Shown: piece after piece, positions 7,095 to 26,616 of the stretch
Numbering within the stretch: position 1 is the stretch's first letter
Layout of the letters: each line of letters opens with the position of its first letter
NCBI GenBank assembly: GCA_966677695.1
Contig: CBKWTF010000001.1
Coordinates: 1 to 26,616 of the forward strand
DNA length: 26,616 nt
Reading direction: 5' to 3'
DNA from: an uncultured bacterium
Lineage (GTDB): Bacteria > Patescibacteriota > Minisyncoccia > Phycocordibacterales > JAACPR01
Notes under the pieces: generated by a model
What the model was told of the DNA's origin: nothing
What the model saw: only the letters and a program-made list of their open reading frames with translations
Databases searched by the model: none
Program-made: the position numbers and the translations under genes

Positions 7095-7119
7095 AGCACT
7101 CACAACACCCATATTAGAT

Positions 7120-7536
7120 ATGCCAACAGTAAATCAGCTCGTAAAGCGAAATCGAAAGAAGACAGTCCGCAAGTCAAAGGCGGTTGCCCTTACTCGTGGA
7201 TTCAATACTCTTAAGAACCGACCATCTTTTTACAAGTCTCCGTTCAAGCGAGGCGTATGTACCAAGGTGACCACCAAGACACCTAAGAAGCCTAACTCAG
7301 CAATCCGAAAGATTGCCCGAGTACGACTTTCAAACGGATTTGAGGTTACTGCCTACATTCCAGGAATGGGACACAACCTGCAGGAGCACTCGATGGTGCT
7401 TCTACGAGGAGGACGAGTAAAGGACGTAGGAATCCGATACACCGTCGTTCGAGGTATGCTTGACTCTGAGGGAGTGCAGAAGCGAATGAAGGGACGATCT
7501 CGATACGGAGCTAAGCGACCTAAGGCAGCTAAATAA
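7120..7536 (+). CDS. rpsL: 30S ribosomal protein S12 (138 aa)
   Basis: MPTVNQLV...[45 protein letters not shown]...RGGRVKD...SRYGAKRPK. The true start is ATG 7120, inside the track ORF 7021-7536. Confidence 0.99.
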
Positions 7537-7567
7537 GCCATACAGTAACTAACTTTTATTACATACC

Positions 7568-8038: not shown

Positions 8039-8053
8039 TACTCTCATCCCAAT

Positions 8054-8087
8054 AAGAAAAGGCGCGCCGTACGGCGCGCCTTTTCTT
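8054..8087. terminator. Perfect 34-bp palindrome, probable bidirectional intrinsic terminator after rpsG
   Basis: AAGAAAAGGCGCGCCGTACGGCGCGCCTTTTCTT is self-complementary, has a GC-rich stem, is followed by a T-rich tract and lies 15 bp after the rpsG stop. Confidence 0.8.
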
Positions 8088-8117
8088 TATATCTACTTGA
8101 TTTAGGGCTGAATCGGC

Positions 8118-8145
8118 TTTACTTATCTTATATTTTCAGTACAAT
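8118..8145 (+). promoter_or_regulatory. Putative dedicated fusA promoter
   Basis: TTTACT (8118-8123), 16 bp, TACAAT (8140-8145), downstream of the rpsG terminator. Confidence 0.5.
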
Positions 8146-8208
8146 GAGCCTACCTTTTCCAGGGGGATTTTTATTTATCTACGTTATTAAATTACACATA
8201 CATATATT

Positions 8209-10353
8209 ATGAGTCGAGAGTATCCACTAAGCCGCGTTCGAAACTTCGGTATCATTGCCCATATCGACGCCGGAAAGACGACAACTTCGGAGCGAATTCT
8301 GTTCTATACCGGAGTGTCTCACAAGATCGGAGAGGTGCATGAGGGAGCTGCCATCATGGACTGGATGGAGCAGGAGCAGGAGCGAGGTATTACCATTACG
8401 TCAGCTGCCACTACCTGTTTCTGGACACCTACATACGCGCCAGGAAACACTGAGCTGAAGCACCAGTTCAACATTATCGATACCCCGGGTCACGTGGACT
8501 TCACCGTGGAGGTGGAGCGATCACTCAAGGTGCTCGACGGAGGAGTGGTGGTGTTCGACGGAGTGGCCGGAGTGGAGCCGCAGTCAGAAACCGTGTGGCG
8601 ACAGGCTGACAAGTACAAGGTTCCACGAATCTGCTTCATCAACAAGCTTGATCGAACCGGAGCGTCATTTGAGCGATCATACAAGTCGATAATCGACCGA
8701 CTCGCAAAGCGAGCGGTGCGAGCCCAGATCCCGATGGGAGAGGAGTCGGACCTGCACGGAGTGATCGACCTTCTTAAGATGAAGGCGTATACCTTCGAGG
8801 GAGACATGGGAAACAAGGTGGTTGAGCAGGAGATCCCTGAGAAGTACAAGGAGGATGCCGAGCTGTACCGAGCCGAGCTCGTTGAGCGAATCGTGGAGAA
8901 CGACGAGGCACTTATGAACAAGTTCTTCGCCGGAGAGGAGATCGCCCTTGAAGACCTCAAGAAGACGCTGCGAAAGGCGGTGATCGAGAACAAGCTCGTT
9001 CCGGTATTCACCGGATCGGCGCTTAAGAACACCGGAGTTCAGCTGGTGCTGGATGCCGTGGTTGACTACCTTCCAGCCCCTACGGACATTCCTGCGATTA
9101 AGGGAAACGATGTCGAGACTGGAGAGGAGATGGAGCGACAGTCTGATGACAAGGAGCCTCTTGCCGCGCTCGCCTTCAAGCTTCAGACTGATCCGTACGT
9201 TGGACAGCTGACCTACATCCGAGTGTATTCGGGAGTGCTCGAGGCCGGATCATACGTTCTGAACACTACGACCGGAGAGAAGGAGCGAGTAGGACGAATT
9301 CTGCGAATGCATGCCAACGACCGAGAGGAGGTGAAGACCGTGTATGCCGGAGAGATTGCTGCGGCGGTAGGACTTAAGAACACGCACACGTCTGATACGC
9401 TGTGTGATCCTGAGCATCCAATCGAGCTGCACCGAATCGAGTTCGCCGAGCCGGTGATCGCCCTTCGAATCGAGCCGAAGACCAAGGCCGACCAGGAGAA
9501 GATGGGAATGGCGCTCAAGAAGCTCTCGGAGGAGGATCCTACGTTCAAGGTTTCAACCGACGAGGAGACCCTCGAGACTATTATTGCGGGTATGGGAGAG
9601 CTTCACCTTGAGATTCTCGTTGATCGAATGAAGCGAGAGTTCAACGTCGAGGCGAACGTTGGTAAGCCGCAGGTGGCATACCGAGAGACCATCTCTGCCG
9701 ATGCGAACGCGGACTACAAGTACGTGAAGCAGTCAGGAGGTAAGGGACAGTACGGACACGTGAAGATCAACATCAAGCCGATGGATCATAACGTTGATCT
9801 CGAGAACCTTCCGAAGAACGTGAAGCGATCAGAGGGACTTGAGTTCATCAACAACATCAAGGGAGGAGCGATTCCCGGAGAGTTCATCGCGCCGATCGAG
9901 AAGGGAATCAAGGAGGCGATGCAGCGAGGAGTCGTTGCCGGATACAAGATGGTGGACGTGTCAGTCGAGCTGTATGACGGATCGTTCCACGAGGTGGACT
10001 CGTCCGAGATCGCCTTCAAGCTTGCTGCGCTCTACGCGTTCCAGGAGGCTGCCGCCAAGGCCCGACCCGTGCTGCTTGAGCCGGTCATGAAGGTTGAGGT
10101 AACCGTACCCGAGAAGTTCCTCGGAGACATCACCGGAAACCTGTCTTCAAAGCGAGGACAGATCGAGGGAACTCAGGACCGAGGAAACGGAATCGTGGCC
10201 ATCGGTGCAAAGGTGCCTCTGTCTGAGATGTTCGGATACACGACGTCGCTTCGATCAATGACCGAGGGGCGAGGGGCTATGACCATGGAGTTCAGCAACT
10301 ACGAGACCGTGCCGCAGAACGTGGCCGAGGAGATCAAGAAGACTCGAGGATAA
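8209..10353 (+). CDS. fusA: Elongation factor G (714 aa)
   Basis: [79 protein letters not shown] and [10 protein letters not shown] motifs. Confidence 0.99.
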
Positions 10354-10426
10354 TCAGAGACGGAAATATACATAGCCATGACGGGCGGCCGCCACCAACG
10401 TTCCCCCCCGCCTTGCGTTGGGCCTG

Positions 10427-10435
10427 TGATATACT
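10427..10435 (+). promoter_or_regulatory. Putative extended -10 promoter for the small membrane protein gene
   Basis: TG-A-TATACT, 23 bp upstream of ATG 10459. Confidence 0.4.
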
Positions 10436-10458
10436 TTAGGCATAACCGAAGCAATAGC

Positions 10459-10731
10459 ATGAACGTACAGTTTGACGAAGATAATTTCTCAGGACCCCAG
10501 AACTTCGGCGGAATGCCTCAGCAGCCGCAAAGCAGTTCCGGTTCGGGCATGATCGGCTGGATGGTGAGGTCCGGACTGGCAAAGGATACGAATTCCGCAA
10601 ACGTCATCCTTACGATACTGGCCCTAATCGTGTTCGGAATCTCGATCTACTTCTTTATGTTCGGATTCTCCAAGCCGACCTTCTCCGGACCCCAGCAGCC
10701 GCCGCAGGAGATACCGGGGGTTACTCTATAA
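10459..10731 (+). CDS. Small single-pass membrane protein, hypothetical (90 aa)
   Basis: MNVQFDEDNF... start preferred over 10378. Amphipathic MIGWMVRSGLAKD, hydrophobic NVILTILALIVFGISIYFFMFGF, Pro/Gln-rich ends; has its own promoter-like and terminator-like signals. Confidence 0.8.
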   Translation: MNVQFDEDNFSGPQNFGGMPQQPQSSSGSGMIGWMVRSGLAKDTNSANVILTILALIVFGISIYFFMFGFSKPTFSGPQQPPQEIPGVTL

Positions 10732-10761
10732 AAAAGACGCACTGATGAAGTGCGTCTTTTT
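10731..10761. terminator. Intrinsic (bidirectional) terminator
   Basis: AAAAAGACGCAC-TGATGAA-GTGCGTCTTTTT, a perfect 12-bp stem overlapping the stop codon of the small gene. Confidence 0.85.
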
Positions 10762-10833
10762 CTTGTGGCTGATAAGTGTTGTATGTTAGCGCCCGGCAGA
10801 ATTCATCGGTCTCCAAGAAGAGCGGTCAGGCGC

Positions 10834-10861
10834 TTGAATTTTCATGGAAATATGATATTGT
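10834..10861 (+). promoter_or_regulatory. Putative rplJL promoter
   Basis: TTGAAT (10834-10839), 16 bp, TATTGT (10856-10861) preceded by TG-A (extended -10), just 5' of the leader RNA. Confidence 0.5.
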
Positions 10862-10869
10862 ATTTTCCA

Positions 10870-11006
10870 TAAGGCCGAAGACAAGAGGCGACCATAAGTC
10901 CTCTCGAGGTTTGTTTCGAAGAAGCGCACTGCGCGTTTTCGAGGCGACAAATCTCTTAACCAGAATTATCTGACCTTCGGCCTTAGTTGGTCGGATAATT
11001 TTATTT
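10870..11006 (+). ncRNA. L10-leader-like cis-regulatory RNA (ribosomal protein L10/L12 autoregulation) with terminator hairpin
   Basis: CCGAAGACAAGAGG-CGACCATAAGT-CCTCTCGAGG resembles the L10_leader core (AGAC.G.AGG...UAA...CCU..CGAGG). It lies directly upstream of rplJ and has a second stem (10910-10950) and a hairpin at 10964-11000 followed by T's. Confidence 0.7.
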
Positions 11007-11009
11007 AGT

Positions 11010-11498
11010 ATGGCAATTACAAAAGACAAAAAGAAATCAATCCTGGAGAAGCTTGACGGGATCAAGGACAGCGAGTCAGTTGTCTTCGTGAACTTCAAGG
11101 GACTTCCGGTTTCCGAGTCTACTGCTATGCGACGAGAGCTCTCAAAGAGCGACGTCTCATACTACGTAGCGAAGAAGACATTGGTGAAGAGAGCTTTTGC
11201 GGATGCAGGTATCGAAGGGGACATCCCGGCACTTGATGGAGAGTTGGCGGTCGTATACGGAAACGATGCGACGGCGCCGGCACGCGAGATCTTCGCGTTC
11301 CAGAAGAAGTTTGACGGGAAGGTGACCATGCTCGGCGGAGTGTTCGAGAAGAAATTCATGAGCAAGGTCCAGATCGAGGAGGTCGCCAAGATCCCTTCGA
11401 TGCATGTCCTTCGAGGAATGTTCGTAAACGTGATCAACTCACCGATCCAAGGTTTTGCAATGGCCGTCAAAGCTATCGCAGACAAGAAGGCAGCCTAG
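11010..11498 (+). CDS. rplJ: 50S ribosomal protein L10 (162 aa)
   Basis: MAITKDKKK..L..L...SVVFVNFKGL.V.E...MR.EL...YYVAKKTL...G..A..YG...KIPS...L.GMFVNVINSPI; adjacent to rplL. Confidence 0.97.
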   Translation: MAITKDKKKSILEKLDGIKDSESVVFVNFKGLPVSESTAMRRELSKSDVSYYVAKKTLVKRAFADAGIEGDIPALDGELAVVYGNDATAPAREIFAFQKKFDGKVTMLGGVFEKKFMSKVQIEEVAKIPSMHVLRGMFVNVINSPIQGFAMAVKAIADKKAA

Positions 11499-11546
11499 CC
11501 TATATCAAGGCGTCAGTTAACCGTTACTTAATTCTAAAATTAATTT

Positions 11547-11966
11547 ATGTCAGAGGATACACAGGTACAGGACGTACAGGCAGAGGAGACCGTCGAGGTT
11601 CCTGCCAAGTTCAAGTCACTCGTAGAGTCAATCGAGTCTATGTCAGTGCTTGAGCTCCACGAGCTCGTAAAGCTTCTTGAGAAGAAGTTCGGAGTGTCAG
11701 CAGTCGCAGCCGCAGCGCCAGCAGCGGGAGGGGCAGCGGACGCAGCCGAGGAGAAGTCAGACTTCACCGTCCACCTTAAGGATGCCGGAGCTTCGAAGAT
11801 CGGAGTGATCAAGGTAGTCAAGGAGGCGCTTGCTCTCGGACTTAAGGAGGCGAAGGATCTAGTCGATGCCGCTCCGTCAGACCTGAAGTCAGGTGTGAAG
11901 AAGGAGGAGGCCGAGGCGATCAAGAAGCAGCTTGAGGATGCCGGAGCAACAGTCGAGTTGAAATAA
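11547..11966 (+). CDS. rplL: 50S ribosomal protein L7/L12 (139 aa, acidic N-terminal extension)
   Basis: [21 protein letters not shown], Ala-rich hinge, [24 protein letters not shown]...[38 protein letters not shown]. Confidence 0.99.
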
Positions 11967-12030
11967 CTAGGATTTGCTTAGGATTTCGTTTCTTATGATT
12001 TGGTTCGATACGGTCAGTGGGATCAATTCA

Positions 12031-12084
12031 AACGAACTGAACTCACATGTTCGAACGAACTGACATCTAAACGAAACGAACTAG
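12031..12084 (+). repeat. Three phased direct repeats AACGAACT(GA/AG) at 12031, 12054 and 12075
   Basis: Read directly; spacing is 23 and 21 bp. They are preceded by TAGGATTT/TAGGATTT/TATGATTT at 11968, 11979 and 11994. Confidence 0.65.
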
Positions 12085-12088
12085 CTAG

Positions 12089-12124
12089 GAAAACCGTCGG
12101 ACCCATTTGGGTCCGACGGTTTTC
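12089..12124. terminator. Intrinsic terminator for rplJL
   Basis: GAAAACCGTCGGACCC-ATTT-GGGTCCGACGGTTTTC, a perfect 16-bp stem followed by GTTTTG. Confidence 0.85.
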
Positions 12125-12268
12125 GTTTTGCCGATACCTCGAAACAAGGGGGAGGTTACGAATTTGCCGCAAAACACGCCGAGGAAATGTGCTGAGAAAC
12201 GGGGCGTTGCAGTACCTTCTTGAAGGCCCTTTGAACATGAGAATTTTCACTCAAAAACACGTGTCAAG

Positions 12269-12277
12269 TTATCCACA
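12269..12277 (+). promoter_or_regulatory. Consensus DnaA box TTATCCACA
   Basis: Exact match to the TTATNCACA consensus; single copy, in an AT-rich intergenic stretch upstream of the giant gene promoter. Confidence 0.6.
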
Positions 12278-12288
12278 AAATTTCGGTA

Positions 12289-12323
12289 TATAACTTGTTA
12301 TAAAAAACAAATTGCTGCATAAT
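12289..12323 (+). promoter_or_regulatory. Putative promoter of the giant gene with an overlapping inverted-repeat operator
   Basis: TTGTTA (12295-12300), 17 bp, CATAAT (12318-12323). TATAAC-TT-GTTATA (12289-12302) overlaps the -35. Confidence 0.45.
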
Positions 12324-12338
12324 CAACGTATTGGTATG

Positions 12339-12373
12339 GGGGCTGAAACGCGTAATCGCGTTTCAGCCCCTTT
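12339..12373 (+). terminator. Strong leader hairpin (terminator/attenuator-like or 5' stabiliser) before the giant gene
   Basis: GGGGCTGAAACGCG-TAAT-CGCGTTTCAGCCCC, a perfect 14-bp stem followed by TTTGTCATTT, ending 42 bp before ATG 12413. Confidence 0.6.
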
Positions 12374-12412
12374 GTCATTTATCAAATCAACAACATTACA
12401 AACAAAACCATT

Positions 12413-15400
12413 ATGAAAAAATTACTAATCATCGGATCATCACTTGTGGCGCTGACCATCTTCGCGTTGGGCGGAAGTATTCCTGACTCAAGAAGTTCCG
12501 CATCGGTCACGGACCTGATACCCAAAAGAACCGAACCGGTATCGGACGGAATTCCGACGGAAATCCTGGCACAAAACGAGTCACCCCAAGAAGTCTCCGC
12601 ACAAACGGAGACATTCGTCGTTAATGGGGGGGCAACGACAAAGTCAGCAAGTTCCGACGAACTGGCTTTTGCGGGCTCACGTGATGTTGTTGATCACACT
12701 AACTCTTCGTCCGACTCTTCGGACTTCGTCGCTGTGGCGACGCCTGAGTCACGCGACTCGGGAGGCTCGTCTCTCAGATCTGCAGAGACCGCTGAACTTT
12801 CTGCATCTGCTCCGACACGGGTGCCGTCATACGGTCCGAACGGTACTCACTGGCCAAGCAACATTCCGACCCCGTTCATGTACGACACTACTGTGCCGAA
12901 CATCATCGAGGTTGAGCCGAACTGGACGGATCTTTCTAACGCAATCAAGAGCGTGACCGATCAGCAGGCAAACGAGGGAACGCTGATTCTCATCAAGTCC
13001 GGAACCGTAGAGAACCCGACGGTCATGAGGGGAAACGGAAACGGGTCAGGCTCTGACCCTGTGCTTGCCGAGATTGGTTCCGAAATCAGAAACAGCGAAT
13101 TTCCAAATCGGCCTCGAACGAAGCGAATCACCGTAGCGCCTTCGAACGGATACGGAACGCTGCGATGGGAGAACGGAGTGCACATCCGAAGAGTAAAGGG
13201 AGTGGCCTTTGCCGGAATTATCGCTGATCAGGGAATCAAGTCACGAGGAAACACGCAGTCTGCCTTTGCGTGGATTCTTGCGGAAAGCGGACAGACCGGT
13301 TTCTACGGTCATAAGGATCAGGATACCTACGGCATGGAAATCGTGGAGTATGTTGTTCCTGAGGCCCAGGCAAAAAGCGACGATACCGCGGACGTCTATT
13401 CTGTTGACGGAGTGGTTGAGGACTTTGACGTTGTGGGAAGCTACTTCGCTCCGCGGTTCTGGCTGTACAGCGACTGTACTCCGCAGGACTGTCCGCACAC
13501 CGATACCTTCCAGTACGCTACCGGAGGAGGGGGAAGTTACGGCGACATGTCTCTGAGCGACAGCGTATTTTTTGCATCAAACAACAGTGTAATTCAGACC
13601 GGTAACGTTATCGGTCTCGACATCGACCACTCGTTCATCGTTGGAGGAGACGAGTCGTTCAAGAGATATCCGATTACGGGAGGAAGTGACGTCTCGCGAG
13701 AGGGTAACTTCTCAGCCTTCAACGGATCCGGTCGAGGGTTCAATCTGACAAACTCATTCGTATTCGGAGAGATCAAGCTCAATAACCGAGACGCGTCGAG
13801 GGTGTGGAGTAACGTTTCAAATACCAAGATCGCCCAGCCAAGCGGAAAGTATGACGGAGGACTTAACGACCCGCTTTCCGGAGACTGGACATACGAGTCC
13901 GGCATGACGATGGCGAGTGCCGGCATTCCGGCAAAGCCGACGGAGGAGTACCTGCTTACAATCTGGGGCAAGGACATTACGCCTCGCACGGCTGCACCCG
14001 AGTTTAGCCCGAGCGGAACGAGCTTCAACGACTCAGTCACCGTCTCGCTTTCGAGCAACACGGCTGGCGCGGCCATATACTACACAACCAACGGAAGTAC
14101 CCCGACGACCTCTTCGACACGATATGCCGGACCATTTACGCTTTCTTCCTCGGCTACGGTAAAGGCAATCGCGGTATCGGCTGGTCTTGATAACAGCTTT
14201 GTGCAGTCAAAGACCTACACGATCGTACAGCCGGGTCTGCCGGTCATTACAAGGCAGCCTGCTGCCCAGTCGGCACCGGTCGGATCAAGTGCGACCTTCA
14301 CCGTCGAGGCTACCGGAAATCCAGCAGTCAGCGGATATCAGTGGAAGAAGAACGGCGCAAGCATCGCGGGCGCAACCAGCGCAAGCTACACCACGCCTGC
14401 CCTGACTTCTGCCGACAGCGGTTCCACATATACTGTCGTAGTGACGAACGCGCAGGGAAGCGTCGAGTCACAGGGCGCAGCGCTTCTTGTCGCTGACATG
14501 ACGTCTGACAGCTCATATCAGGAGCGATCAATCAGCTCGCTGTCAGGAACATTCACCTATGAGTTCAGCGTGACTCCGCTTGCGGCGAACATGAACGCCG
14601 TAACCGGACTTACGGGCAAGTCATCAGCCGTAAGCGACTATGGCGACTTCTCGATGATGATCCGAATGTACGACGGTCGATTCGACGCGCGAAACGGAGG
14701 CGCATACGGGTACAATGGCGCCCAGGAGGTTCGCTTCGAGGTAGGACGAACATACCAGGTCAAGTTCGTGGTCGACAGCTCGGCAAAGGAATATGACGTA
14801 TTTGTTGACGGCAAGCTCATCGGAGACAATTTTGATTTCCGAAATACAACCTATACAACGTTTAACAAGATCGCGTATCGAGCCGAAGTCGGATCGCATA
14901 CGATCGGACTGACAGGATCAACGGGAGGAGGGGAGGATACCCAGGCTCCGGTCGTCAATGCCGGACCGGACCAGACCATCACGCTTCCGACGAACAGCGT
15001 GACGCTCAACGCTGACGTCTCAGACAATCAGCCGGTCACGAATCTTGCAAACGTCTGGACGCGACAGAGCGGACCGGCCGCCGTTTCGTTCGGCAACGAG
15101 AACTCGATCGACACGACCGCGACATTTACGACCGCAGGAACATACGTGCTCAGGCTGACCTCAAACGACGGAGACAACACCGGATACGACGAGATTACGA
15201 TCGTCGTACGTCCGCAGGAGGGAGTGAACCAGGCTCCGGTCGTCAGCGCGGGTTCTGACGTTTCAATTACCACCGGAGGAACCGCGACACTCGACGGAAC
15301 CGTTACGGATGACGGACTTCCAGCCGGTTCAACGGTCGCCCAGACATGGAGCCGTGTGGAGGGTCCTGGAACGGTGACATTTGCCAATCCCTCCGCTCAG

Positions 15401-18400: not shown

Positions 18401-21400
18401 TCCGACGAGATGACGGTAACGGTGAGCCGGCAGGTGGCAGTCGGGTCTGCGGTATACGTTCGGGCTGGAGCGGCCGGAAACGGAAGCAGCTGGACAAACG
18501 CGCTCGGATCAATTCCTCCATCGGCAAGTCTTGAGCGAGGAATGACATACTATATTGCTGACGGATCATACGGGTCATATCTCTTCGATAAGGCCAAGGA
18601 TGGAACTAAGCTTGTTACTTTCAAGAAGGCGACAGTCGCAGATCACGGAACTAACGAAGGATGGCAGTCTTCATACGGAGACGGTCAGGCAGTATTTACC
18701 TCGTTCAAGATCGATGGAACTGGATACTTCACGCTTGACGGAAACATCGGATCGGACAAGTTTGCGGAAAAGGGAATTCTTATCAGTTCGCAGAGCCGAC
18801 AGACAGCCTTTCGAATTGACGACTCTGACTACGTAACCATCGAGGGAATCGAGGTCGACGCCAACTACGACGATCGAATCTCGTGTAACGTTGCAGAGGT
18901 TATCGGGCAGGACATTTCGGACGGTGGATACAACACGACAAATATCACCATTAAGAAGAGCCACTTCCGAAACGGAGGAGACGATGGATTGGTGCTCTAC
19001 AACGTAAAGGACCTCATCTTCGAGGACAACGAAATATCGGATCTCTTCGGATACAATATTGAGGCGCATCCAACTGACGGTTGTGGAAACGGACACAGTG
19101 ACGGAATCGAGATCAAGACAGTTACGAATGCGGTCTTCAACCGAAACTACTTCCACTCAATCGACAAGACGTCGGCATTTCTTCCAAGTAACTGGACGTC
19201 GAACTACGGAACCGCATCAAGCGATGCCGAGGAGCGGAACATTACCGTAACGAACAACATCTTCCACACACCTAACGCATCCGGTGCCGTGTACGTGCAG
19301 CACATGAAGGACGCGAAGTTCTTCCATAACACGATCTCACAGGGACAGTATTCCGGAGTGATCATGGAAACAAAGGGAGATTACAAGATCGTCGAGAACT
19401 TCGACATAGCAAACAACATCATCTCCGCATTTGCAATCAAGGATGAGGTTGGAAACAGCCAACTCGACATCGACTACAATCTGCTTATCGGACCGGAGGT
19501 GCACTCGTTCAACCCGCACGTACCGTCGACAAACGATATTAACCTCGGTTGGGAGATGAACAAGGCCTTCCCTGCAAACCTATACGCTGGATCGGACGTG
19601 AACGCCCACTACGTACCGGGTAAGGGTCATCCGAACTGGGGACCTGAGGCATCGGCCTTTACGCCTGCTGCGACAAACCCTGGAATCAACAAGGGAAAGA
19701 CAGGACTTCCAACAAGCGTGACGATCGGCGGAGTAACGGTGGACATCTCGAAGGACTTCTTCGGAAACTCACGATCAGGAGCGCCTGACATGGGAGCCAT
19801 CGAGTTCTCGGGATCATCACAGGCAAACAGGCTCGTTGCGGTAACGGTCTTCGGGGCAGGAGACGTGACAGGTAATGGAATCTCATGCGGAGCAGACTGT
19901 TCAGAAGTGTACTCGTCAGGCGAGAGCGTGACTCTTACCGCAACGCCTCGACCAAATGCGACGTTCGCCGGATGGAGTGGAGCATGTGCCGGAACAGGAA
20001 CGTGTACCGTGACGGTAAGCGACTTCAAGAACGTCATCGCGACATTCAACGGAGGAATCGATCCGGACGCATGGCAGGTCGGAGATCGCGTTGAGGCGAC
20101 AAAGACCGTCCGAGTTCGATCGGGAGCCGGAACAGGATTTGCAACCGTTATCCCGGATCAGAACGAGGGTGCACAGGGAACCGTTACAGGAGGACCTGCC
20201 TCGGGATCAGGGTTGACATGGTACAAGATCAAGTATGACGGATATACAACCGAGGGATGGACAGGAGCAGACGGACTCGTGCGACTTTCGGGAGGAGGGG
20301 AGCCTGACAGCACGGCACCTACAGTTCCTGGAAACCTTTCAGAGGTATCCGTGACAAATACGTCAGCGTCGATCTCATGGACTGCGTCGACTGATGCGGT
20401 CGGAGTGACAGGGTATGAGATCCTTCGAAACGGATCAGTGGTAGGAAACTCAAATACCAACTCATACACGCTTACAGGTCTTGCAAAGGGAACTACCTAC
20501 ACGATTACGGTAAAGGCGTTCGACGCTGCGGGCAACAAGTCTGCCGCATCTGCAGCTTTGACCGTAACAACGTCAGACTCCGTCGACTCAATTGCGCCAA
20601 GCGTACCTGCTGGCCTCACAAAGGGAACAGTGACAAACACGTCAGCGTCGATCTCATGGACTGCGTCGACTGACAACGTCGAGGTAACTGGTTACGACAT
20701 CTACCGTGACGGTGCGCTTGTCGGATCATCGGCAGGTACTTCGTACTCAGAATCCGGATTGGCGAAGGCTACGACATATAGTTACACCGTCAAGGCAAAG
20801 GATGCTGCAGGAAACGTTTCTGCGCCATCGGCCATCCTGTCGGTAACGACCACGAACATCGAGTCGAAGATTCCAGTTCGAGTGAAGTCGTTCGGACCGA
20901 ACGGTACTCACTGGCCGGACAAGATCGATACGCCATTCATGTACGATGACACGGTCACGTCGATTGTCATCAACCCAAGCTGGACAGAGCTTCAGGCGGC
21001 GCTTGATAGCGTAACCAAGGCACAGGCAGATGCGGGACTTCGAATCCTTATCAAGCCGGGAACGATGGCAGGAAAGGGAATTACCGGAGGTTCTCAGAAG
21101 ATGATAGCCGACACCGGATCAGCAGCGTGGGACCAGCGAGTGGTGGTGGCTCCAAGAGACGGTTACGGAACCGTAACGTGGACCGGAGGAGTGCGAATCG
21201 AAAATGTCGAAGGGGTTGCCTTCGCTGGACTTAAGGTTGAAGAGCCGGGAATCCGATTCAAGGGTAATAATCGATCTGCTCTTGCGTGGATCAATATCTC
21301 AGGCGGAAACGCGACGCCTACCCAACTTCTCGTAGGGGCATCAAACGAGAAGTCTGTAGCTGATGTCGAAATTGTCGAGGTGGTAATGAGGGATTCCGAG

Positions 21401-24400
21401 GCGACAGACTCTGACGCTTCTGCGGTTCAGGGACTAAGCAGCGGGTCGAACTCAATCAAGCGAGTGACATATGCCGGGTCATATCTTGCACCTAAGTTCG
21501 TGACGGGAAGCGGACATACTGACACGCTTCAGTTTGCGACCGGAAACTACCAGGATCAGGTAGGCTCAAGCATCGTCGATACCGCGCTCTTCGGATCAAG
21601 CAACGCGACGCTCCAGGTAGGAAGTACAAACGGTCTCAAGATCGACCACTCGTTCCTTGTCGCCGGTGAGACATCGCTCTCACGATACCCGGTTCTTCCC
21701 GGGGGAGACGGGCCGGTAGAGGTAGTGTTCAACGGAGGTTCGACCGGAATGACGGCATACGATTCAATCTTTGTCGGAGGAATGGGAGCGCCGAAGTGGA
21801 CCGAGGTTCGAAACACTCGAACGGCTAAGGCAGGCAATACCCCATCACAAGGTGAGTGGACCGTAGACCCGAGCCTTTACGATATGAGGGACGATGCGGC
21901 AGGATACAAGAATCTCGTACCGTATCCTACTGACGCGTATCTTGCGCAGATCTGGGCAAAGGACGGAAATCCCGTTACATACCGAACCCTTACGATTAAC
22001 AAGACAGGATCAGGATCGGTAACAGGAGCGACATCAGGGGAGTCGTTCATGGACGGATCGAGCGTGATTCTTACTGCGGTGCCCGCAACAGGAGCGACAT
22101 TCACAGGATGGAGCGGGGCATGTACCGGAACGAACGCGACGTGTACGGTAGTCATGTCGGCAGACAAAACCGTTTCCGCATCGTTCTCTGCGGTTGCGAA
22201 TCCCGAGTATGCCATCACTATCGCAAAGACCGGAACAGGAACGGGAACGGTTTCAGGCGCTACGTCTGGACAGCAGTTCACATCAGGAACCGTCGTGACA
22301 CTGACAGCGACTCCTGCAAGCGGATCTACGTTCGCGGGATGGAGCGGGTCATGTGCGGGAACCAACGCGACATGTGCCGTGACTATGGATGCGGCTAAGT
22401 CCGTGACGGCAACATTCAACATCGCCACGGTCGCACAGTACACCCTGACAGTCTCAAAGAGCGGAACGGGAACAGGAACTGTATCTGGAAGCGCAGCCTC
22501 ACAGGCGTACAACTCGGGAACTGTGGTTACCCTTACGGCAACTCCAGACGCTTCATCAAACTTCACAGGATGGAGCGGGGCATGTACCGGAACGAACGCG
22601 ACGTGTCAGGTCACAATGAGCTCGAACAAGACGGTGACAGCAACGTTCGCAGCAAAGCCGGCAGACCAGGTCGCTACGCCGACATTCTCACCGACTTCGA
22701 CTTCGTCTGCGGACCCGATTACGGTGACGATCAGTTCGGCGACAACAGGCGCGACAATCCGATACACAACTAACGGAAGCACGCCTACGACAAGTTCGGC
22801 TCAGTACACAGGACCGATCACCGTCTCTTCATCACAGACAATCAAGGCGATCGCTACAAAGTCAGGAATGACAAACAGCGCCGTAGGGGAGGCGACATAT
22901 GCGATCGTTCCTGTCACGGGCGGAGCGGGTCCGTTCACCTCAAGCCTCAGCTGGCTGAACAAGTCCTTCCTTGAGCTGTCCGGAACAGCGAACCGAACCG
23001 GAATCTTCACGGTAACGTTCAACGCAACTCCGCTGGACAACGACATCGACGTCGTGACCGCGCTTACGGACGGAGCGGCTGACGGATTCAACGATCTTGC
23101 GGCAACGATCCGATTCAACAAGCTCGACCCTTCATACATCGATACGGTAAACGGGGGATCATACGATGTCGATGATGAGATCGTGTACGAGGAGGACGAA
23201 ACATATCCTGTTCGAATGGTCGTCGACGTTCCGAACCGACATTACTCCGTATGGGTAACGGTAAATGGGGTTGAGAGGCAGATTGCTCGAGATTACGCAT
23301 TCCGAACGGGAAGTGGCGTAACCCAGGTATCAAAGCTTACCAACTTCTCTATCCGAGCGGTTACCGGAACGCACCGAATTACGAACGTGGTGATCGGTCA
23401 GGACGGAGGATCGTCTGACACACAGGCTCCGAGCACGCCAGTCGGATTGTCGTCATCGAACGTCACAAGCTCATCGGCGACTGTCTCATGGAACGCGTCA
23501 AGCGATAACGTCGGCGTAACAGGATACGAGGTGCTGCGGGGAACAAGTGCCGGCAACTTGTCGACGGTCACGACCGTTACAGGAACCTCGTTCGTAGATA
23601 GTGCACTGTCTGCCAATACGACATACTACTACGCTGTGAAGGCAAAGGATGCTGCAGGCAATGTGTCAGCCGCGTCAAATGCGCTTACTGTCCGAACCAA
23701 CAACGTTGCGGACATTCAGGCGCCTACTGTGCCTACAAACGCGCAGACATCTCGAGAGTCAACAACGAGCGTCCTTATAGAGTGGACCTCGTCGAGCGAT
23801 AACGTGGGAGTGTCGTACTACAACATCTACCGAGACGGATCCGTCGTGGCTACAAGTCCGTACCCTGCATACGAGGACTCAGGACTGACACCGAATACCA
23901 CATATGTATACCGGGTTTCCGCAGTTGACGGAGCCCAGAACGAATCCGGGCTGTCCTCAGCGGTAAGCACGCGGACACTAAGCGATGTCGACGACATTGC
24001 GCCTGAGATCCGATCGTTCTCTGTGCCTTCGACCTCAAATTCCCTTACTGTCGCTGTCAACTCATTTGCGGCAAGCGACAACGGAGAAACGGTAGAGTAC
24101 TACATCACGGAGAGCGAAGCGGTTCCTTCGGGACCATCCGTTGCGTGGTCATACGCCGCGCCGACAAGCTATACGATCAAGAGTGGTATCGGAAGCGGAA
24201 CGTATACGCTTTATGCATGGGCACGTGATGCGGCGGGAAATATCTCAACACCGCGAATTGCCACAGTTGTCGTGACGCTTCCGGATACGATCCTTCCAGA
24301 GGTGGTCATCACGGCTCCCGCAGCAAACTCACTGGTATCAGGAACGTCGGTTGCGATTAGCGCGACCGCCACTGACAACGTCAGGGTGGCTTCGGTCCAG

Positions 24401-26332
24401 TTCCGGGTAGACAATACCGTCATCGCGAATGATACGGCGGCACCGTATGCAGCGACATTCAACGCGTCTGCTCTTGCAAGCGGAGCGCATACGATCTACG
24501 CAATCGCTCGAGATGCGGCCGGAAACGTCCGAACCGCATCGGTCTCGGTAATCGTGGGAACAACACAGCCGGTCGACAGTGACCAGGACGGGGTGCCTGA
24601 CCTGGTTGACCGATGTCCGAATACTCCTGAGCAGTTCCGAAACAACGTGAACCGATACGGATGTCCGAAGCCGAAGGCCAATAACTTCGACCTCACGACA
24701 AACTTCGATGATGTTGATCTTGCCGCCGTGCAGAACCTGCAGATCGGTATCAGCAACATTGGAAAAATCGAGTATTCGAACCAGACAATTAACCTGGTAC
24801 AAAGCAACGGAAGCTCTCAGTTCGACATCGATACCCATGTGGACATCGATCCGGGAAGGGTATCTGTCGACTCGTCACGAGCTCCGCAGCTCAACAAGCC
24901 TGCGACGATCACGCTCTACAACATCACTACGCCAAACCCTGTGATCATGAGAGACGGTCAGGTGTGTACGAACTGTACGATTGTGTCACACGTGAACGGA
25001 GTGCTTGTCTTCACGGTGCAGGGATTCTCGACATATACCGTAGTGGGTGACTCACAGGCGCCTACGGTGCCGGGAGGACTGTCGTCTTCCGACGTAACCT
25101 CTTCGCGCATAACGCTCTCGTGGAACGCGTCAACCGACAACGTCGGCGTGACTGCGTACGAGGTGTACCGTGACTCGACCCTTGTCACAACGACAAGCCT
25201 GCGAACGTATACGGATAGCAACCTGTCGCCCGATACGTCCTACACCTATACTGTCAGGGCGAAGGATGCGGCAGGAAATCGGTCTTCTGCATCAGCGGAC
25301 CACACCGTAAGGACCGACAAGAGCTCATCAGGCTCAGGAGGAAGCTCGGGCGGAGGAGGCGGAGGATCGTCTTCGAAGGGGATCAAGGTTTCGTGTACGA
25401 TTTCGGACACCAGCATCGCTCCGGGAAGTGTCATTACGATCGGAGCAATCGTGTCAGGAGGAAAGTCTCCGTATACGTATTCTTGGACAAAGGATGCCTC
25501 TGACATCTCAGGGTTCAATCGAACGGCTCAGAACCAGTCGGTACGAATGAGCGAGAAGGGATCGTACAGCCTGTCGGTAAAGGTTACGGATGCGGACAAG
25601 AGGTCGAAAACTGACAGCTGTTCTCGAATTACGGTAAGCGAGAGGTATAACACCACTTCCGGTTCAACAGGATCTATGGGCTCAACCGGGTCGACTGGAT
25701 CGACCGGAAGCACCGGTTCATCTGGCTCAGTCGGAGGAACTGCATATGCCTTCTACCGGGACCTGACCATCGGGTCGACCGGTGAAGACGTACGACAGCT
25801 GCAGAGGTTCCTGAACGCTCAAGGATTCACTGTCTCGGTATCCGGGGCGGGATCAGTAGGAAACGAGAGCTCCTACTTCGGTCCTGCTACAACCGCGGCG
25901 CTTGCGCGGTACCAGGCGGCAAACGCCATCAGTCCTGCGGTGGGATACTTCGGTCCTCTGACCCGAACGCGGGCAAACGGAGGGACAACCGTGTCTGCGC
26001 CTTCTGTGGCGACGCCGTCGGTAACGCCTCCAGTCGTGACGACTCCGGTAGTTACCGCGCCGTCTACGGGAACAACATCCGTCTACCTGGGCAAGAATCT
26101 TGCTCCGGGCGTGACTGATGCGGATGTTCTCATCCTGCAGAAGTTCCTTAACAAGTACGGATTTACTGTTGCGGTTTCAGGATCAGGGGCTCCTGGAAAC
26201 GAGAGTACGTACTATGGTGAGCTGACTAAGCAGGCGGTAAAGCGGTTCCAGGCCTCGAAGGGACTTCCGTCTGACGGATGGACCTACGAGCGAACCAGAG
26301 CGGCAATCAATGCCGCAGGAGCGTCGATTTAG
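12413..26332 (+). CDS. Giant (4639 aa) secreted multidomain glycan-active surface protein / adhesin with C-terminal peptidoglycan-binding domains
   Basis: A single uninterrupted ORF with the N-terminal signal/anchor MKKLLIIGSSLVALTIFALG and about 30 recognisable modules. These are 3 beta-helix-like domains, DUF5060+TIM barrel+collagen-bind-like, a CBM-like module, 2 lectin-like, 2 SH3b, 3 PKD/REJ, 5 chitinase-type FN3, 2 Fn3-associated, 4 InlB-B/Flg_new-like, Ig-like domains, a TSP3 motif and 2 PG_binding_1. Confidence 0.93.
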   Translation: MKKLLIIGSSLVALTIFALGGSIPDSRSSASVTDLIPKRTEPVSDGIPTEILAQNESPQEVSAQTETFVVNGGATTKSASSDELAFAGSRDVVDHTNSSSDSSDFVAVATPESRDSGGSSLRSAETAELSASAPTRVPSYGPNGTHWPSNIPTPFMYDTTVPNIIEVEPNWTDLSNAIKSVTDQQANEGTLILIKSGTVENPTVMRGNGNGSGSDPVLAEIGSEIRNSEFPNRPRTKRITVAPSNGYGTLRWENGVHIRRVKGVAFAGIIADQGIKSRGNTQSAFAWILAESGQTGFYGHKDQDTYGMEIVEYVVPEAQAKSDDTADVYSVDGVVEDFDVVGSYFAPRFWLYSDCTPQDCPHTDTFQYATGGGGSYGDMSLSDSVFFASNNSVIQTGNVIGLDIDHSFIVGGDESFKRYPITGGSDVSREGNFSAFNGSGRGFNLTNSFVFGEIKLNNRDASRVWSNVSNTKIAQPSGKYDGGLNDPLSGDWTYESGMTMASAGIPAKPTEEYLLTIWGKDITPRTAAPEFSPSGTSFNDSVTVSLSSNTAGAAIYYTTNGSTPTTSSTRYAGPFTLSSSATVKAIAVSAGLDNSFVQSKTYTIVQPGLPVITRQPAAQSAPVGSSATFTVEATGNPAVSGYQWKKNGASIAGATSASYTTPALTSADSGSTYTVVVTNAQGSVESQGAALLVADMTSDSSYQERSISSLSGTFTYEFSVTPLAANMNAVTGLTGKSSAVSDYGDFSMMIRMYDGRFDARNGGAYGYNGAQEVRFEVGRTYQVKFVVDSSAKEYDVFVDGKLIGDNFDFRNTTYTTFNKIAYRAEVGSHTIGLTGSTGGGEDTQAPVVNAGPDQTITLPTNSVTLNADVSDNQPVTNLANVWTRQSGPAAVSFGNENSIDTTATFTTAGTYVLRLTSNDGDNTGYDEITIVVRPQEGVNQAPVVSAGSDVSITTGGTATLDGTVTDDGLPAGSTVAQTWSRVEGPGTVTFANPSAQDTTATFSAPGIYTLRLTATDGTLQATDDVVVSVGGGTGEIVLSGERKQWHKITLTMDGPNTSESASTNPFRDYRVDVTFTHPSSGTTYIVPGYYAADGNAAESSASAGNKWRAHFAPDRTGTWNYSVSFRTGSNVAIAASRTAGTSAGYFDGQTGSFSVSATDKSGKDLRGKGRLVYDGEHYLKFAGTGERFIKAGVDSPENLLAYEDFDNTPRVGGGTIKSYSAHAGDYASGDPEWQNNKGTELIGAINYLSSEGLNAISFLTFNVDGDDGNVYPFTAENVEDRFDVSKLDQWQIVFDHATAKGMYLHFKLMEAENDGNLVTEQFKLYTRELIARYGHELALNWNLGEENGLSASILTDWAQYLKDTDPYQHNRVLHLLCGDFGTCTSKYFGMMGSNSQLTGFSLQGTDASDFQNTFAHVKAFVDESAERGKKWVVAMDEPGDSSAGVKADTASSNNQDIARKHGLWGTIMAGGQGVEWYFGSSDDIALQNFRTRDNFYAYNKYAVDFLTSNGLPVAGLTNQNSLISGGSATGNKVLAKTGEVYLVQLINGGNATLNLSGTSGTFNVKWLNPRTGAVTTGANVAGGSSVTLNAADSNDWVVLVKRGTGTVDPDPTGAYQENGGVVVIEAENTASDREDGTDFWALRRPGDSRYVANATNDAHLEYRSNTSLDDTPGAVPVTYTFKINEGGYYQLHIRAHKNIEDETRPDLNNDAYIKVSGVNGSTYTAGPNAGSTHLKDAPLSMLQNYTKIAGGSDSTWAWADQLDAGGDNNKRWPVYGFQTGGTYTLTMSGRSRGFAPDRFVFRKVDEIPMPLAKNYAIPESSKVEGGTNPNITPITNGSTQVRTLEYVNVRTVPSVSGNTPLGRMPFGSQGTIMEGPVVSSDNLVWWRVNFAATSTDGWTGGDNLEVIPGTGGGDENLAPTVNAGADQAITLPTNSVTLTGTATDSDGTVSSRQWTKVSGGTANLSGATTNTLSVSGLEEGTYVFRFTATDNEGASSSDEMTVTVSRQVAVGSAVYVRAGAAGNGSSWTNALGSIPPSASLERGMTYYIADGSYGSYLFDKAKDGTKLVTFKKATVADHGTNEGWQSSYGDGQAVFTSFKIDGTGYFTLDGNIGSDKFAEKGILISSQSRQTAFRIDDSDYVTIEGIEVDANYDDRISCNVAEVIGQDISDGGYNTTNITIKKSHFRNGGDDGLVLYNVKDLIFEDNEISDLFGYNIEAHPTDGCGNGHSDGIEIKTVTNAVFNRNYFHSIDKTSAFLPSNWTSNYGTASSDAEERNITVTNNIFHTPNASGAVYVQHMKDAKFFHNTISQGQYSGVIMETKGDYKIVENFDIANNIISAFAIKDEVGNSQLDIDYNLLIGPEVHSFNPHVPSTNDINLGWEMNKAFPANLYAGSDVNAHYVPGKGHPNWGPEASAFTPAATNPGINKGKTGLPTSVTIGGVTVDISKDFFGNSRSGAPDMGAIEFSGSSQANRLVAVTVFGAGDVTGNGISCGADCSEVYSSGESVTLTATPRPNATFAGWSGACAGTGTCTVTVSDFKNVIATFNGGIDPDAWQVGDRVEATKTVRVRSGAGTGFATVIPDQNEGAQGTVTGGPASGSGLTWYKIKYDGYTTEGWTGADGLVRLSGGGEPDSTAPTVPGNLSEVSVTNTSASISWTASTDAVGVTGYEILRNGSVVGNSNTNSYTLTGLAKGTTYTITVKAFDAAGNKSAASAALTVTTSDSVDSIAPSVPAGLTKGTVTNTSASISWTASTDNVEVTGYDIYRDGALVGSSAGTSYSESGLAKATTYSYTVKAKDAAGNVSAPSAILSVTTTNIESKIPVRVKSFGPNGTHWPDKIDTPFMYDDTVTSIVINPSWTELQAALDSVTKAQADAGLRILIKPGTMAGKGITGGSQKMIADTGSAAWDQRVVVAPRDGYGTVTWTGGVRIENVEGVAFAGLKVEEPGIRFKGNNRSALAWINISGGNATPTQLLVGASNEKSVADVEIVEVVMRDSEATDSDASAVQGLSSGSNSIKRVTYAGSYLAPKFVTGSGHTDTLQFATGNYQDQVGSSIVDTALFGSSNATLQVGSTNGLKIDHSFLVAGETSLSRYPVLPGGDGPVEVVFNGGSTGMTAYDSIFVGGMGAPKWTEVRNTRTAKAGNTPSQGEWTVDPSLYDMRDDAAGYKNLVPYPTDAYLAQIWAKDGNPVTYRTLTINKTGSGSVTGATSGESFMDGSSVILTAVPATGATFTGWSGACTGTNATCTVVMSADKTVSASFSAVANPEYAITIAKTGTGTGTVSGATSGQQFTSGTVVTLTATPASGSTFAGWSGSCAGTNATCAVTMDAAKSVTATFNIATVAQYTLTVSKSGTGTGTVSGSAASQAYNSGTVVTLTATPDASSNFTGWSGACTGTNATCQVTMSSNKTVTATFAAKPADQVATPTFSPTSTSSADPITVTISSATTGATIRYTTNGSTPTTSSAQYTGPITVSSSQTIKAIATKSGMTNSAVGEATYAIVPVTGGAGPFTSSLSWLNKSFLELSGTANRTGIFTVTFNATPLDNDIDVVTALTDGAADGFNDLAATIRFNKLDPSYIDTVNGGSYDVDDEIVYEEDETYPVRMVVDVPNRHYSVWVTVNGVERQIARDYAFRTGSGVTQVSKLTNFSIRAVTGTHRITNVVIGQDGGSSDTQAPSTPVGLSSSNVTSSSATVSWNASSDNVGVTGYEVLRGTSAGNLSTVTTVTGTSFVDSALSANTTYYYAVKAKDAAGNVSAASNALTVRTNNVADIQAPTVPTNAQTSRESTTSVLIEWTSSSDNVGVSYYNIYRDGSVVATSPYPAYEDSGLTPNTTYVYRVSAVDGAQNESGLSSAVSTRTLSDVDDIAPEIRSFSVPSTSNSLTVAVNSFAASDNGETVEYYITESEAVPSGPSVAWSYAAPTSYTIKSGIGSGTYTLYAWARDAAGNISTPRIATVVVTLPDTILPEVVITAPAANSLVSGTSVAISATATDNVRVASVQFRVDNTVIANDTAAPYAATFNASALASGAHTIYAIARDAAGNVRTASVSVIVGTTQPVDSDQDGVPDLVDRCPNTPEQFRNNVNRYGCPKPKANNFDLTTNFDDVDLAAVQNLQIGISNIGKIEYSNQTINLVQSNGSSQFDIDTHVDIDPGRVSVDSSRAPQLNKPATITLYNITTPNPVIMRDGQVCTNCTIVSHVNGVLVFTVQGFSTYTVVGDSQAPTVPGGLSSSDVTSSRITLSWNASTDNVGVTAYEVYRDSTLVTTTSLRTYTDSNLSPDTSYTYTVRAKDAAGNRSSASADHTVRTDKSSSGSGGSSGGGGGGSSSKGIKVSCTISDTSIAPGSVITIGAIVSGGKSPYTYSWTKDASDISGFNRTAQNQSVRMSEKGSYSLSVKVTDADKRSKTDSCSRITVSERYNTTSGSTGSMGSTGSTGSTGSTGSSGSVGGTAYAFYRDLTIGSTGEDVRQLQRFLNAQGFTVSVSGAGSVGNESSYFGPATTAALARYQAANAISPAVGYFGPLTRTRANGGTTVSAPSVATPSVTPPVVTTPVVTAPSTGTTSVYLGKNLAPGVTDADVLILQKFLNKYGFTVAVSGSGAPGNESTYYGELTKQAVKRFQASKGLPSDGWTYERTRAAINAAGASI
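12818..13975 (+). other. Unassigned ~386-aa domain, copy 1 (predicted right-handed beta-helix, lyase-like)
   Basis: RVPSYGPNGTHWP...APSNGYGTLRW...VKGVAFAGI...SYFAPRF...PHTDTFQY...IDHSFIVGG...IWGKD; colinear with copy 2. Confidence 0.6.
15512..17218 (+). other. DUF5060 + clan GH-A-like (beta/alpha)8 glycoside hydrolase (DUF4038/GH140-like architecture) + collagen-binding-2-like beta domain
   Basis: GERKQWHKITLTMDGP...NPFRDYRVDVTFTHP...GYYAADG...WRAHFAPDRTGTWNY; RFDVSKLDQWQIVFDHA; NWNLGEEN (16433-16453); WVVAMDEPG (16715-16729); LWGTIMAGGQGVEWYFG; WLNPRTG...DWVVLVKR. Confidence 0.7.
17924..20284 (+). other. Two bacterial SH3-like domains (17924-18130 and 20072-20284)
   Basis: VNVRTVPS...G...GTIMEGP...WWRVNF...GWTGGDNL and VRVRSGAGT...GTVTGGP...WYKIKY...GWTGADGL fit the SH3b pattern. 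Confidence 0.7.
18452..19807 (+). other. Right-handed parallel beta-helix (pectin-lyase-like) domain with C-terminal PDMGAIE motif
   Basis: YVRAGAAGNGSSWTNA start; repeats TNITIKKSHF, KDLIFEDNEI, NAVFNRNYF, NITVTNNIF, AKFFHNTI, DIANNII; GHSDGIE; end DFFGNSRSGAPDMGAIEF. Confidence 0.8.
20879..21964 (+). other. Unassigned ~362-aa domain, copy 2
   Basis: RVKSFGPNGTHWP...APRDGYGTVTW...VEGVAFAGL...SYLAPKF...GHTDTLQF...IDHSFLVAG...IWAKD; 20 nt identical to copy 1 (12836-12855 vs 20897-20916). Confidence 0.6.
21980..22648 (+). repeat. Three tandem InlB-B/Flg_new-like repeats (a fourth copy at 19832-20047)
   Basis: Y.LT..K.G.G.G.V.G......G..V.LTA.P..G..F.GWSGAC.GT...C.V.M...K.V.A.F; copies at 22100-22144 and 22562-22606 share 45 identical nt. 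Confidence 0.85.
25751..26314 (+). other. Two peptidoglycan-binding (PG_binding_1-like) domains, 25751-25978 and 26087-26314
   Basis: RDLTIGSTGEDVRQLQRFLN.QGF...GNESSYFGPATTAALARYQ...GYFGPLTR and KNL.PG....DV..LQKFLN.YGF...GNESTYYGELTKQAVKRFQ. Confidence 0.9.
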
Positions 26333-26440
26333 GCGGAAATATCCTCAAGACATACTCATAATATGGCTTGAAATAAGGATAATGTGAGAACCAGTGTCTC
26401 TGTGACACCAAAGCAAGGCTCAAAGTAGGGGCAAAAACGC

Positions 26441-26468
26441 AAAGGGCGCGCCGATCGGCGCGCTTTTT
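26441..26468. terminator. Intrinsic terminator after the giant gene
   Basis: AAAGG-GCGCGCCGATCGGCGCGC-TTTTT: an 18-bp perfect palindromic core extended by G-U and A-U pairs, then a T tract. Confidence 0.75.
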
Positions 26469-26516
26469 CGCATGCACCGTTTGGTTGTCCTCAGTCGCTA
26501 GGCGATGAAAAGGCCA

Positions 26517-26616
26517 AGAAAAGGGACCTAAAGAAGGGCTCTCGGAGCGCGCCGGCGCGAGAGTGAGGCGATTTTTCAGCAGAAAATATGCCGTACCTTC
26601 TTTAGGTCCCTTTTCT
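26517..26616. mobile_element. ~100-bp MITE/REP-like element with perfect 21-bp terminal inverted repeats (may extend past the window end)
   Basis: AGAAAAGGGACCTAAAGAAGG (26517-26537) is the exact reverse complement of 26596-26616. The 58-bp interior has two further hairpins. No transposase is in the window, so mobility is not shown. Confidence 0.45.

Follow-up and report, generated by a model that had tools for sequence, protein, structure and literature searches.

The 26,616 nt stretch of DNA analysed here (the window) comprises the entire contig C1 of a genome of the Candidate Phyla Radiation (CPR) of soil origin (G000; 657,675 bases in 91 contigs, 96% complete), and it raises the question of whether three palindromic sequences within it belong to a single repeat family. 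Two of these are short hairpins, one located just after rpsG (8054-8087) and the other after a giant surface-protein gene (26441-26468); the third is a long inverted repeat (26517-26616) that reaches the end of the contig. An earlier note, based on the letters of the window, proposed that all three are forms of one spreading palindrome akin to repetitive extragenic palindromic (REP) sequences or miniature inverted-repeat transposable elements (MITEs), with the rpsG hairpin as a deletion derivative of the long element, and that one insertion may have split the str operon. Were this so, an active mobile palindrome would be reshaping a core ribosomal operon. We compared the window with the other contigs of G000, with seven sister species of the same genus (G001-G007) and with other genera of this Paceibacteria-type order. 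Judged by the S7 protein, the closest named relatives are metagenome-assembled genomes of Patescibacteria/CPR. The palindromes are of two kinds: the long element is very probably a copy of a widespread structured CPR cassette, unrelated to the short hairpins, and the rpsG hairpin appears instead to be an old terminator.

The long element is 100 nt in length, with 58 nt between its 21 nt arms, and is laid out as follows.

26517-26537, forward strand: 5′ clamp arm (P1) of the structured cassette, a perfect 21 nt inverted arm specific to this copy
26538-26564, forward strand: core hairpin H1, with a covarying base stem, a GGA/GA internal loop and a 4 bp GC stem
26567-26592, forward strand: core hairpin H2, with a covarying lower stem, a bulge and a conserved UUUUUC-AGCA-GAAAA apex
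26596-26616, forward strand: 3′ clamp arm (P1), a perfect 21 nt inverted arm that ends at the contig end

BLAST searches with 26380-26616 matched the 58 nt loop and not the arms, both on four other contigs of G000 (C70, C22, C60 and C7, at 81-83% identity) and in G003, as well as in several other families of the order (G027, G029, G033, G035 and G039). The five core copies of G000 carry five different arm pairs, each perfectly or nearly perfectly complementary. The 21 nt arm of the window copy was found at no other locus of G000, its only further match being the end of contig C23, which is the same locus seen through a contig overlap, and an exact-pattern metagenome scan found no instance of the two arms separated by a gap of 40-70 nt. 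A covariance model of the core, R1, finds it in 115 of the 151 genomes sampled across the order (about 880 matches, 1-31 per genome). The window copy itself scores 68.8 bits against R1 (E about 1e-21, at 26528-26608); it is a member of the R1 seed, and the four paralogs and the matches in 115 genomes are independent of seed membership. The idea of a spreading repeat family therefore survives in part, since there is such a family at the window end and it is gained and lost as a unit, but what is repeated is the centre and not the terminal inverted repeats.

Selection acts on the structure of the core on one strand. In the window copy, clamp, H1 and H2 make up a three-way junction (-61 kcal/mol, z -7.1), closed by a perfect 21 bp clamp, and the same layout was seen in the other folded copies, with clamps present in all 17 of the 17 copies folded. 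A consensus fold of 15 copies has 14 pairs, eight of them with compensatory changes; in a larger alignment of 47 copies, fitted to the R1 model, 99.2% of cells are paired and double-sided changes occur in 12 of the 14 pairs. None of 500 shuffles reached these values, and a slid control also fell far below them. Of 17 copies, 15 fold more stably as the sense strand, which also has more G-U pairs; this points to a single-stranded, probably RNA, form. The family sequence of H1 is GGA-GCGC-GACG-GCGC-GAG, with a GACG tetraloop that reads GCCG in the window copy; the consensus and the other four G000 copies read GCGCGACGGCGCG. Two copies, at C7:13640-13790 and on C12 of G003 (L084:66-240), have an extra hairpin of ~42 nt inside the H1 tetraloop, a core variant common to the two species at non-orthologous sites.

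The long element sits between the terminator of the giant gene and the promoter of tuf, and is single-copy as to its arms. C1 and C23 share an exact 24 nt overlap at their ends, with the continuation on the reverse strand of C23; beyond the overlap lies a TTGACA...TACTAT promoter, conserved in all genus members examined, followed by tuf. The genes rpsG, fusA and tuf occur in the same order on one contig in G001 and G005. Logan contigs from three public sequencing runs cover 26338-26616 without differences and extend past the window end; as their extensions gave no letters, the C1-C23 join rests on the 24 nt overlap and synteny. Part of the window is also present in one RNA run. The base after 26616, predicted in the earlier note to be T, is A in the overlapping contig, so that the arms are 21 nt long and not 22 nt.

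Arms and core are gained or lost as one block between sister species. One spacer on C22 of G003 contains a unit of ~119 nt made up of the core and its two arms; the orthologous spacer of G000 (C48), with the same flanking genes, is without the unit and has no hairpin at all. Comparison for target-site duplications revealed only a weak GTA(A)G repeat between the filled G003 site and the empty G000 site, and no more than 1 nt common to both flanks at the window copy. At another orthologous spacer, between convergent genes, G003 has the cassette and G000 a different elaborated hairpin. Six of the seven genus members examined (G000, G001, G003, G004, G005 and G006) have, directly before the tuf promoter, a long hairpin whose loop is large and structured, and G007 has a plain terminator at this position. 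The proposed relationship between plain and elaborated terminators is borne out to the extent that such swaps occur at the same sites across the genus, but they do not involve the three palindromes of the window, nor do they run in the direction that had been suggested.

Elsewhere in the order, the cassette is associated with tRNA genes. Among the 23 top-scoring loci scanned, from genomes across the order, 16 have a tRNA gene on the strand of the cassette, ending 17-100 nt before it; at these tRNA-linked loci the 3′ clamp arm repeats exactly the last 18-20 nt of the tRNA, from the T-loop, with the 5′ arm as its mirror. None of the five G000 copies adjoins an assembled tRNA. Four of the five, the window copy included, have arms that do not resemble a tRNA; by eye, the arms on C7 look like a tRNA T-stem and acceptor 3′ strand, with no tRNA gene beside them. 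Three G000 copies are sense with respect to flanking genes and two are antisense. Two possible origins of the arms were considered and rejected: copying from the upstream flank, for which the non-tRNA copies showed only weak and ambiguous similarity, and a retroviral-type primer-binding site, for which the mirror arm lacks the complement of CCA.

Rfam 15 gave no match to the window end, to the tuf-upstream regions of the sister species or to 16 related loci, apart from chance hits to microRNA and leader models. Readings of the core as a hammerhead, a twister, a group II domain 5, a signal recognition particle RNA or a transfer-messenger RNA-like structure were discarded, as the conserved nucleotides do not fit by eye and Rfam offers no support. 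A full-text literature search found no description of such repeats in CPR bacteria. Through the window element, G000 is linked to a folded repeat that is very widespread among ultra-small bacteria and has no entry in Rfam, and the repeat gains a new context: the core can also stand apart from tRNA genes, between clamps unlike tRNA.

Among known repeat systems, the RtT repeats (rttR, RF00391) behind tyrT and tyrV of Escherichia coli resemble the cassette as it occurs in other families: both are structured, GC-rich units behind a tRNA gene that end in a copy of the last 19 nt of the tRNA, from the T-loop, with a partial mirror upstream. This layout was confirmed in E. coli K-12, where the final 19 nt of tRNA-Tyr recur as six direct copies and the partial mirror in the RtT units is GGGGAAGGAT. 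However, the cassette has no sequence or covariance-model match to RF00391 (with E values of up to 1-10 allowed, neither the window nor 30 related loci gave a hit), its core is different and it is far more widespread; the window copy differs further in lying between the giant gene and tuf, with no adjoining tRNA and with arms that are not tRNA-like. Like MITEs, REP sequences and bacterial interspersed mosaic elements, and Correia-type repeats, the cassette is short, non-coding, multi-copy, intergenic and hairpin-forming, may serve as a terminator and shows insertion/deletion polymorphism. Unlike a MITE, it has a conserved centre and terminal arms that are different in each copy, and in contrast to both MITEs and REP sequences there is no clear target duplication and no REP-associated tyrosine transposase (RAYT), and the core is conserved across the whole order. 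In other families the cassette also recalls the tRNA-gene integration sites of islands and prophages, being bracketed by a tRNA 3′ end and its exact copy, but the bracketed DNA is only about 100-170 nt long and contains no genes, a mirror copy is also present, and one core family uses many different tRNAs. No feature of this last comparison applies to the window copy.

The two short hairpins and the features around them are listed below.

7568-8038, forward strand: rpsG, ribosomal protein S7 (Pfam Ribosomal_S7, E 1e-57)
8054-8087, no strand assigned: putative bidirectional intrinsic terminator of rpsL-rpsG, a perfect 17+17 palindrome with a GGCGCGCC stem and a GTAC centre
8118-8145, forward strand: promoter-like TTTACT-16-TACAAT site before fusA; the spacer around it is conserved with G006
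8209-10353, forward strand: fusA, elongation factor G (Pfam GTP_EFTU, EFG_III, EFG_IV, EFG_C)
12413-26332, forward strand: giant surface-protein gene, 4639 amino acids (PKD, fn3, InlB B-repeat and Ig-like domains)
26441-26468, no strand assigned: putative terminator hairpin of the giant gene, GCGCGCCG-AT-CGGCGCGC followed by TTTTT

Judged from their sequence, both are ordinary Rho-independent bidirectional terminators that have probably been inherited vertically and evolved slowly at their sites. The rpsG hairpin starts 15 nt past the stop codon, has an A-tract before it and a T-tract after it, and ends in CCTTTTCTTT; the hairpin of the giant gene is a palindrome with 15 nt arms, 87% complementary, that ends in CTTTTTCG. 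They share with Rho-independent bidirectional terminators a GC-rich stem-loop directly past a stop codon, an upstream A-tract and downstream T-tract that would allow function on both strands, and a position conserved in relatives. They depart from typical examples in being unusually long and perfect, with a centre of 0-4 nt, and in the over-representation of CGTACG centres in G000. A consensus terminator scan misses both hairpins, because the T-run lies inside the stem. Many palindromes of G000 are perfect, with a 0-2 nt centre and arms of up to 26 nt, and CGTACG is the commonest centre (9 of 68).

Orthologous sites point to inheritance. A palindromic terminator lies within ~25 nt of the rpsG stop codon in all six sister species in which rpsG and its downstream flank were found; the GCGCGCC stem recurs in G006 and G005 with a different loop, and the remaining sister species show graded variants. 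The terminator after rplE, on C23, has a GGCGCGCC ortholog in G003 and graded variants in four other species. Because hairpins with related stems occupy orthologous sites, the rpsG and rplE stems are likely to be inherited and not inserted. Thus, the rpsG terminators of six sister species diverge gradually without the long form, which is the pattern that the earlier note itself had set against its proposal.

The resemblance among the palindromes had been taken as more than generic terminator composition, a view at odds with the hairpin content of the genome. G000 contains 283 perfect hairpins, dozens of which have 15-26 nt arms with a common design (a tract rich in purines or A, then a GC stem, a very small centre and the mirror of these), and AAAGG, AAAAG or GAAAG is present in the 5′ arm of 89 of the 193 hairpins with arms of at least 10 nt. 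The 9-mer AAGAAAAGG occurs 15 times, in several cases directly before unrelated GC palindromes (C14, C18 and C37). As arms of the generic type AAGAAAAGG/CCTTTTCTT occur genome-wide, the likeness between the ends of the rpsG hairpin and those of the long element is a matter of local terminator style. The stem GCGCGCCG-WW-CGGCGCGC has four copies in G000 (after rpsG and after the giant gene, both on C1, after rplE on C23, and on C47); the exact stem was found once each in two of 40 relatives and was absent from the other 38. The mutual likeness of the short terminators would reflect a narrow stem sequence space (AAAGG, a GC-only 8-mer and GTAC) together with shared site ancestry, and not transposition.

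The separation of rpsG from fusA, attributed in the earlier note to an insertion, also appears to be old. The rpsG-fusA spacer of G000, including the promoter-like site, can be aligned with that of G006, and other sister species have 0.7-3 kb of extra DNA, with extra genes, between rpsG and fusA. This common spacer and the extra DNA elsewhere argue for a break that is genus-wide and did not arise from a recent insertion.

Two alternatives concern what the long element is. That it might be an assembly artefact, a fold-back or chimeric join, is suggested by its ending exactly at the contig end and by the frequent breakage of contigs of this metagenome-assembled genome upstream of tuf. We give this almost no credence: the arms enclose a non-palindromic core of 58 nt with four contig-internal paralogs and hundreds of relatives elsewhere, the contigs from three public runs cover 26338-26616 identically and extend beyond it, and C23, which shares 24 nt with the contig end, carries on the conserved order of genes. 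The model of the earlier note, in which the long element is the full form of one REP/MITE-like palindrome family and the short terminators are its deletion derivatives, starts from strings that are all present in the window at the positions it gave, including CGCGCCGGCGCG at 26548-26559. The elements do have AAGAAAAGG, CGCGCCG and CCTTTTCT in common, the GC stem has four genomic copies, and the sharing of stems exceeds a simple null: groups of at least three arms sharing 10 nt had P about 0.003 against a position-wise shuffle of all hairpin arms, a crude test in which several other stem groups exceed the same null and contig overlaps inflate the outcome. Nevertheless, we consider the model highly improbable. 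A genome-wide search gave no further copy of the long arm, only the four copies of the short stem; the other four core copies have different arms and read GCGCGACGGCGCG, so that the CGCGCCG match is a single-base peculiarity of the window copy, with CGCGCCGGCGCG created solely by an A-to-C change at 26552; the outer 9-mer is generic to G000 terminators; sister species have orthologous hairpins with related stems after rpsG and rplE; and the base beyond the window is A where T was predicted. The suggested check for a RAYT or other IS200-like nuclease of the HUH type was also negative, as the Y1 HUH family PF01797 had no match in G000, whilst control genomes were matched; other enzyme classes were not tested. 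The observation behind the earlier note is thus partly confirmed, and its interpretation, refuted in its specifics, is partly supported in spirit: the window end does hold a folded repeat that is gained and lost as a unit, while the short hairpins are separate, inherited terminators.

For the cassette itself, we propose a mechanism in which the ~58 nt two-hairpin core, closed by a long, perfectly paired and copy-specific stem, would form a three-way junction and act as RNA, as part of read-through or local transcripts. In this genus, where it lies between protein genes and not behind a tRNA, the strong hairpin may serve as an insulator or terminator before the tuf promoter, and the cassette would spread as a non-autonomous element through an activity probably supplied by the host. 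We regard the chances of the RNA and insulator role as even. Several points weigh against our overall reading. A terminator of the giant gene already lies 50 nt upstream of the long element, so a terminator role for the window copy is not needed, and a T-run follows the stem in only some of the G000 copies. The two antisense copies oppose the genes on both sides, an orientation as compatible with a DNA-level or selfish element as with an RNA. The covariation was measured in an alignment fitted to R1; stem sharing above the shuffle leaves room for some duplication or conversion between terminators; no mobilizing enzyme was found, within the limits of the PF01797 search; and the proposal gives no account of the origin of copy-specific, perfectly complementary arms.

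Some of these points lend themselves to a different explanation, in which the cassette is a purely selfish, miniature DNA insertion module that inserts into or beside DNA able to form hairpins, for example tRNA T-arms or terminators, and has its clamp built from the target; the hairpins would then be recognition sites for a single-stranded DNA recombinase or nuclease, with no RNA role. The gain and loss of the unit between sister species, a copy number that varies from 0 to 31 per genome across the order, the presence of both orientations relative to flanking genes in G000 and the occurrence of different repeat families at the same orthologous spacers all suit such a module, as does the exact tRNA-derived 3′ arm of 18-20 nt in other families, which resembles a long target duplication. 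We nevertheless think this explanation possible but rather unlikely, since neither a transposase nor an HUH enzyme was found in G000 (with other enzyme classes again not tested), the window copy has no clear target duplication, and the core is highly conserved across >100 families, an uncommon feature in a repeat that is purely selfish. The G-U pairs and strand asymmetry also favour RNA, although single-stranded DNA tolerates G-T pairs to some extent. The context of the core, the presence or absence of the whole block and the occurrence of other caps at like sites make both the spread of the cassette and the choice between a terminator and a processed-RNA role testable.

A broader and distinctly doubtful proposal is that the cassette is part of a wider undescribed CPR class of 'capped hairpins', in which mobile structured caps are clamped by stems made from or fitted to local sequence, for example tRNA 3′ ends or terminator arms. 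The class would take in the window core, a second cap found in the sister species and a split type found in G000. If it exists, caps would convert or replace plain terminators between close species, and capped hairpins would represent a new means by which transcript 3′ ends are built and turned over, via an enzyme that generates perfectly complementary arms. In G002, the second cap lies inside the rpsG terminator, the outer A-rich arms of which still match the plain terminators of G005, G006 and G007, and in G005 the second cap lies upstream of the tuf promoter. A search with an nhmmer profile found no copy of this second cap (module B) in G000, and the cap is also absent from the 33 genomes of other genera that were searched; with no copy in G000, the window element is not of the module B family.

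The second cap is ~33 nt long and occurs inside variable long stems (loci L038-L063, for example L050:1430-1590 and L038:1440-1580), with 2-10 copies in five of the seven sister species and no Rfam match. Its near-invariant CTGGGTGCCGTAATCGGCGGGTCCC centre, with compensatory variants, is 25 nt long and is built around a GCCG-UAAU-CGGC hairpin, and many copies are further flanked by conserved sequences of the types GGTCTGCAGAATCGTTC and GGCTTCGACCTAAC. The third, split type has five copies in G000 (C7:1847-1972, C8:11389-11513, C67:90-209, C63:2422-2527 and C4:11570-11677; L085-L089), in which a perfect, terminator-like palindrome of variable sequence lies between two conserved halves of ~26 nt each, with a complementary outer stem, also variable, around the halves; this type also has no Rfam match.

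The gene order of the window is a giant surface-protein gene, open at its 5′ end, to 7002, then rpsL, rpsG, the hairpin at 8054-8087, fusA, an unnamed ORF, rplJ, rplL, a further unnamed ORF, the 4639-amino-acid giant gene, the hairpin at 26441-26468 and the long inverted repeat. The order across 7021-12293 and the C23 continuation is unusual: as rpsL-rpsG, the terminator, fusA, an ORF of 117 amino acids, rplJ-rplL, an ORF of 97 amino acids, the giant gene and tuf follow one another, rplJL and the giant gene come to lie between fusA and tuf. The placement of rplJL before tuf is common to the genus, with rplL directly preceding tuf in G006 and G007. The longest ORF of rpsL (7021-7536) encodes 171 amino acids, with the S12 domain starting at residue 67, so that either the protein carries an N-terminal extension of ~50 amino acids or the true start codon is further downstream. 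At the rplE locus on C23 (360-830, L031) and its orthologs (L032-L037), rplE and its terminator are followed by a stretch of ~400 nt with a small opposite-strand ORF and then, in the genus members examined, by a TTGACA-type promoter and the S14 gene, an arrangement which indicates that the spc operon is interrupted there. The 4639-amino-acid protein has two C-terminal peptidoglycan-binding domains. The other giant surface-protein gene (1-7002) encodes at least 2333 amino acids, continues on C16 through a 68 nt overlap and has a Peptidase_S74 intramolecular-chaperone domain.

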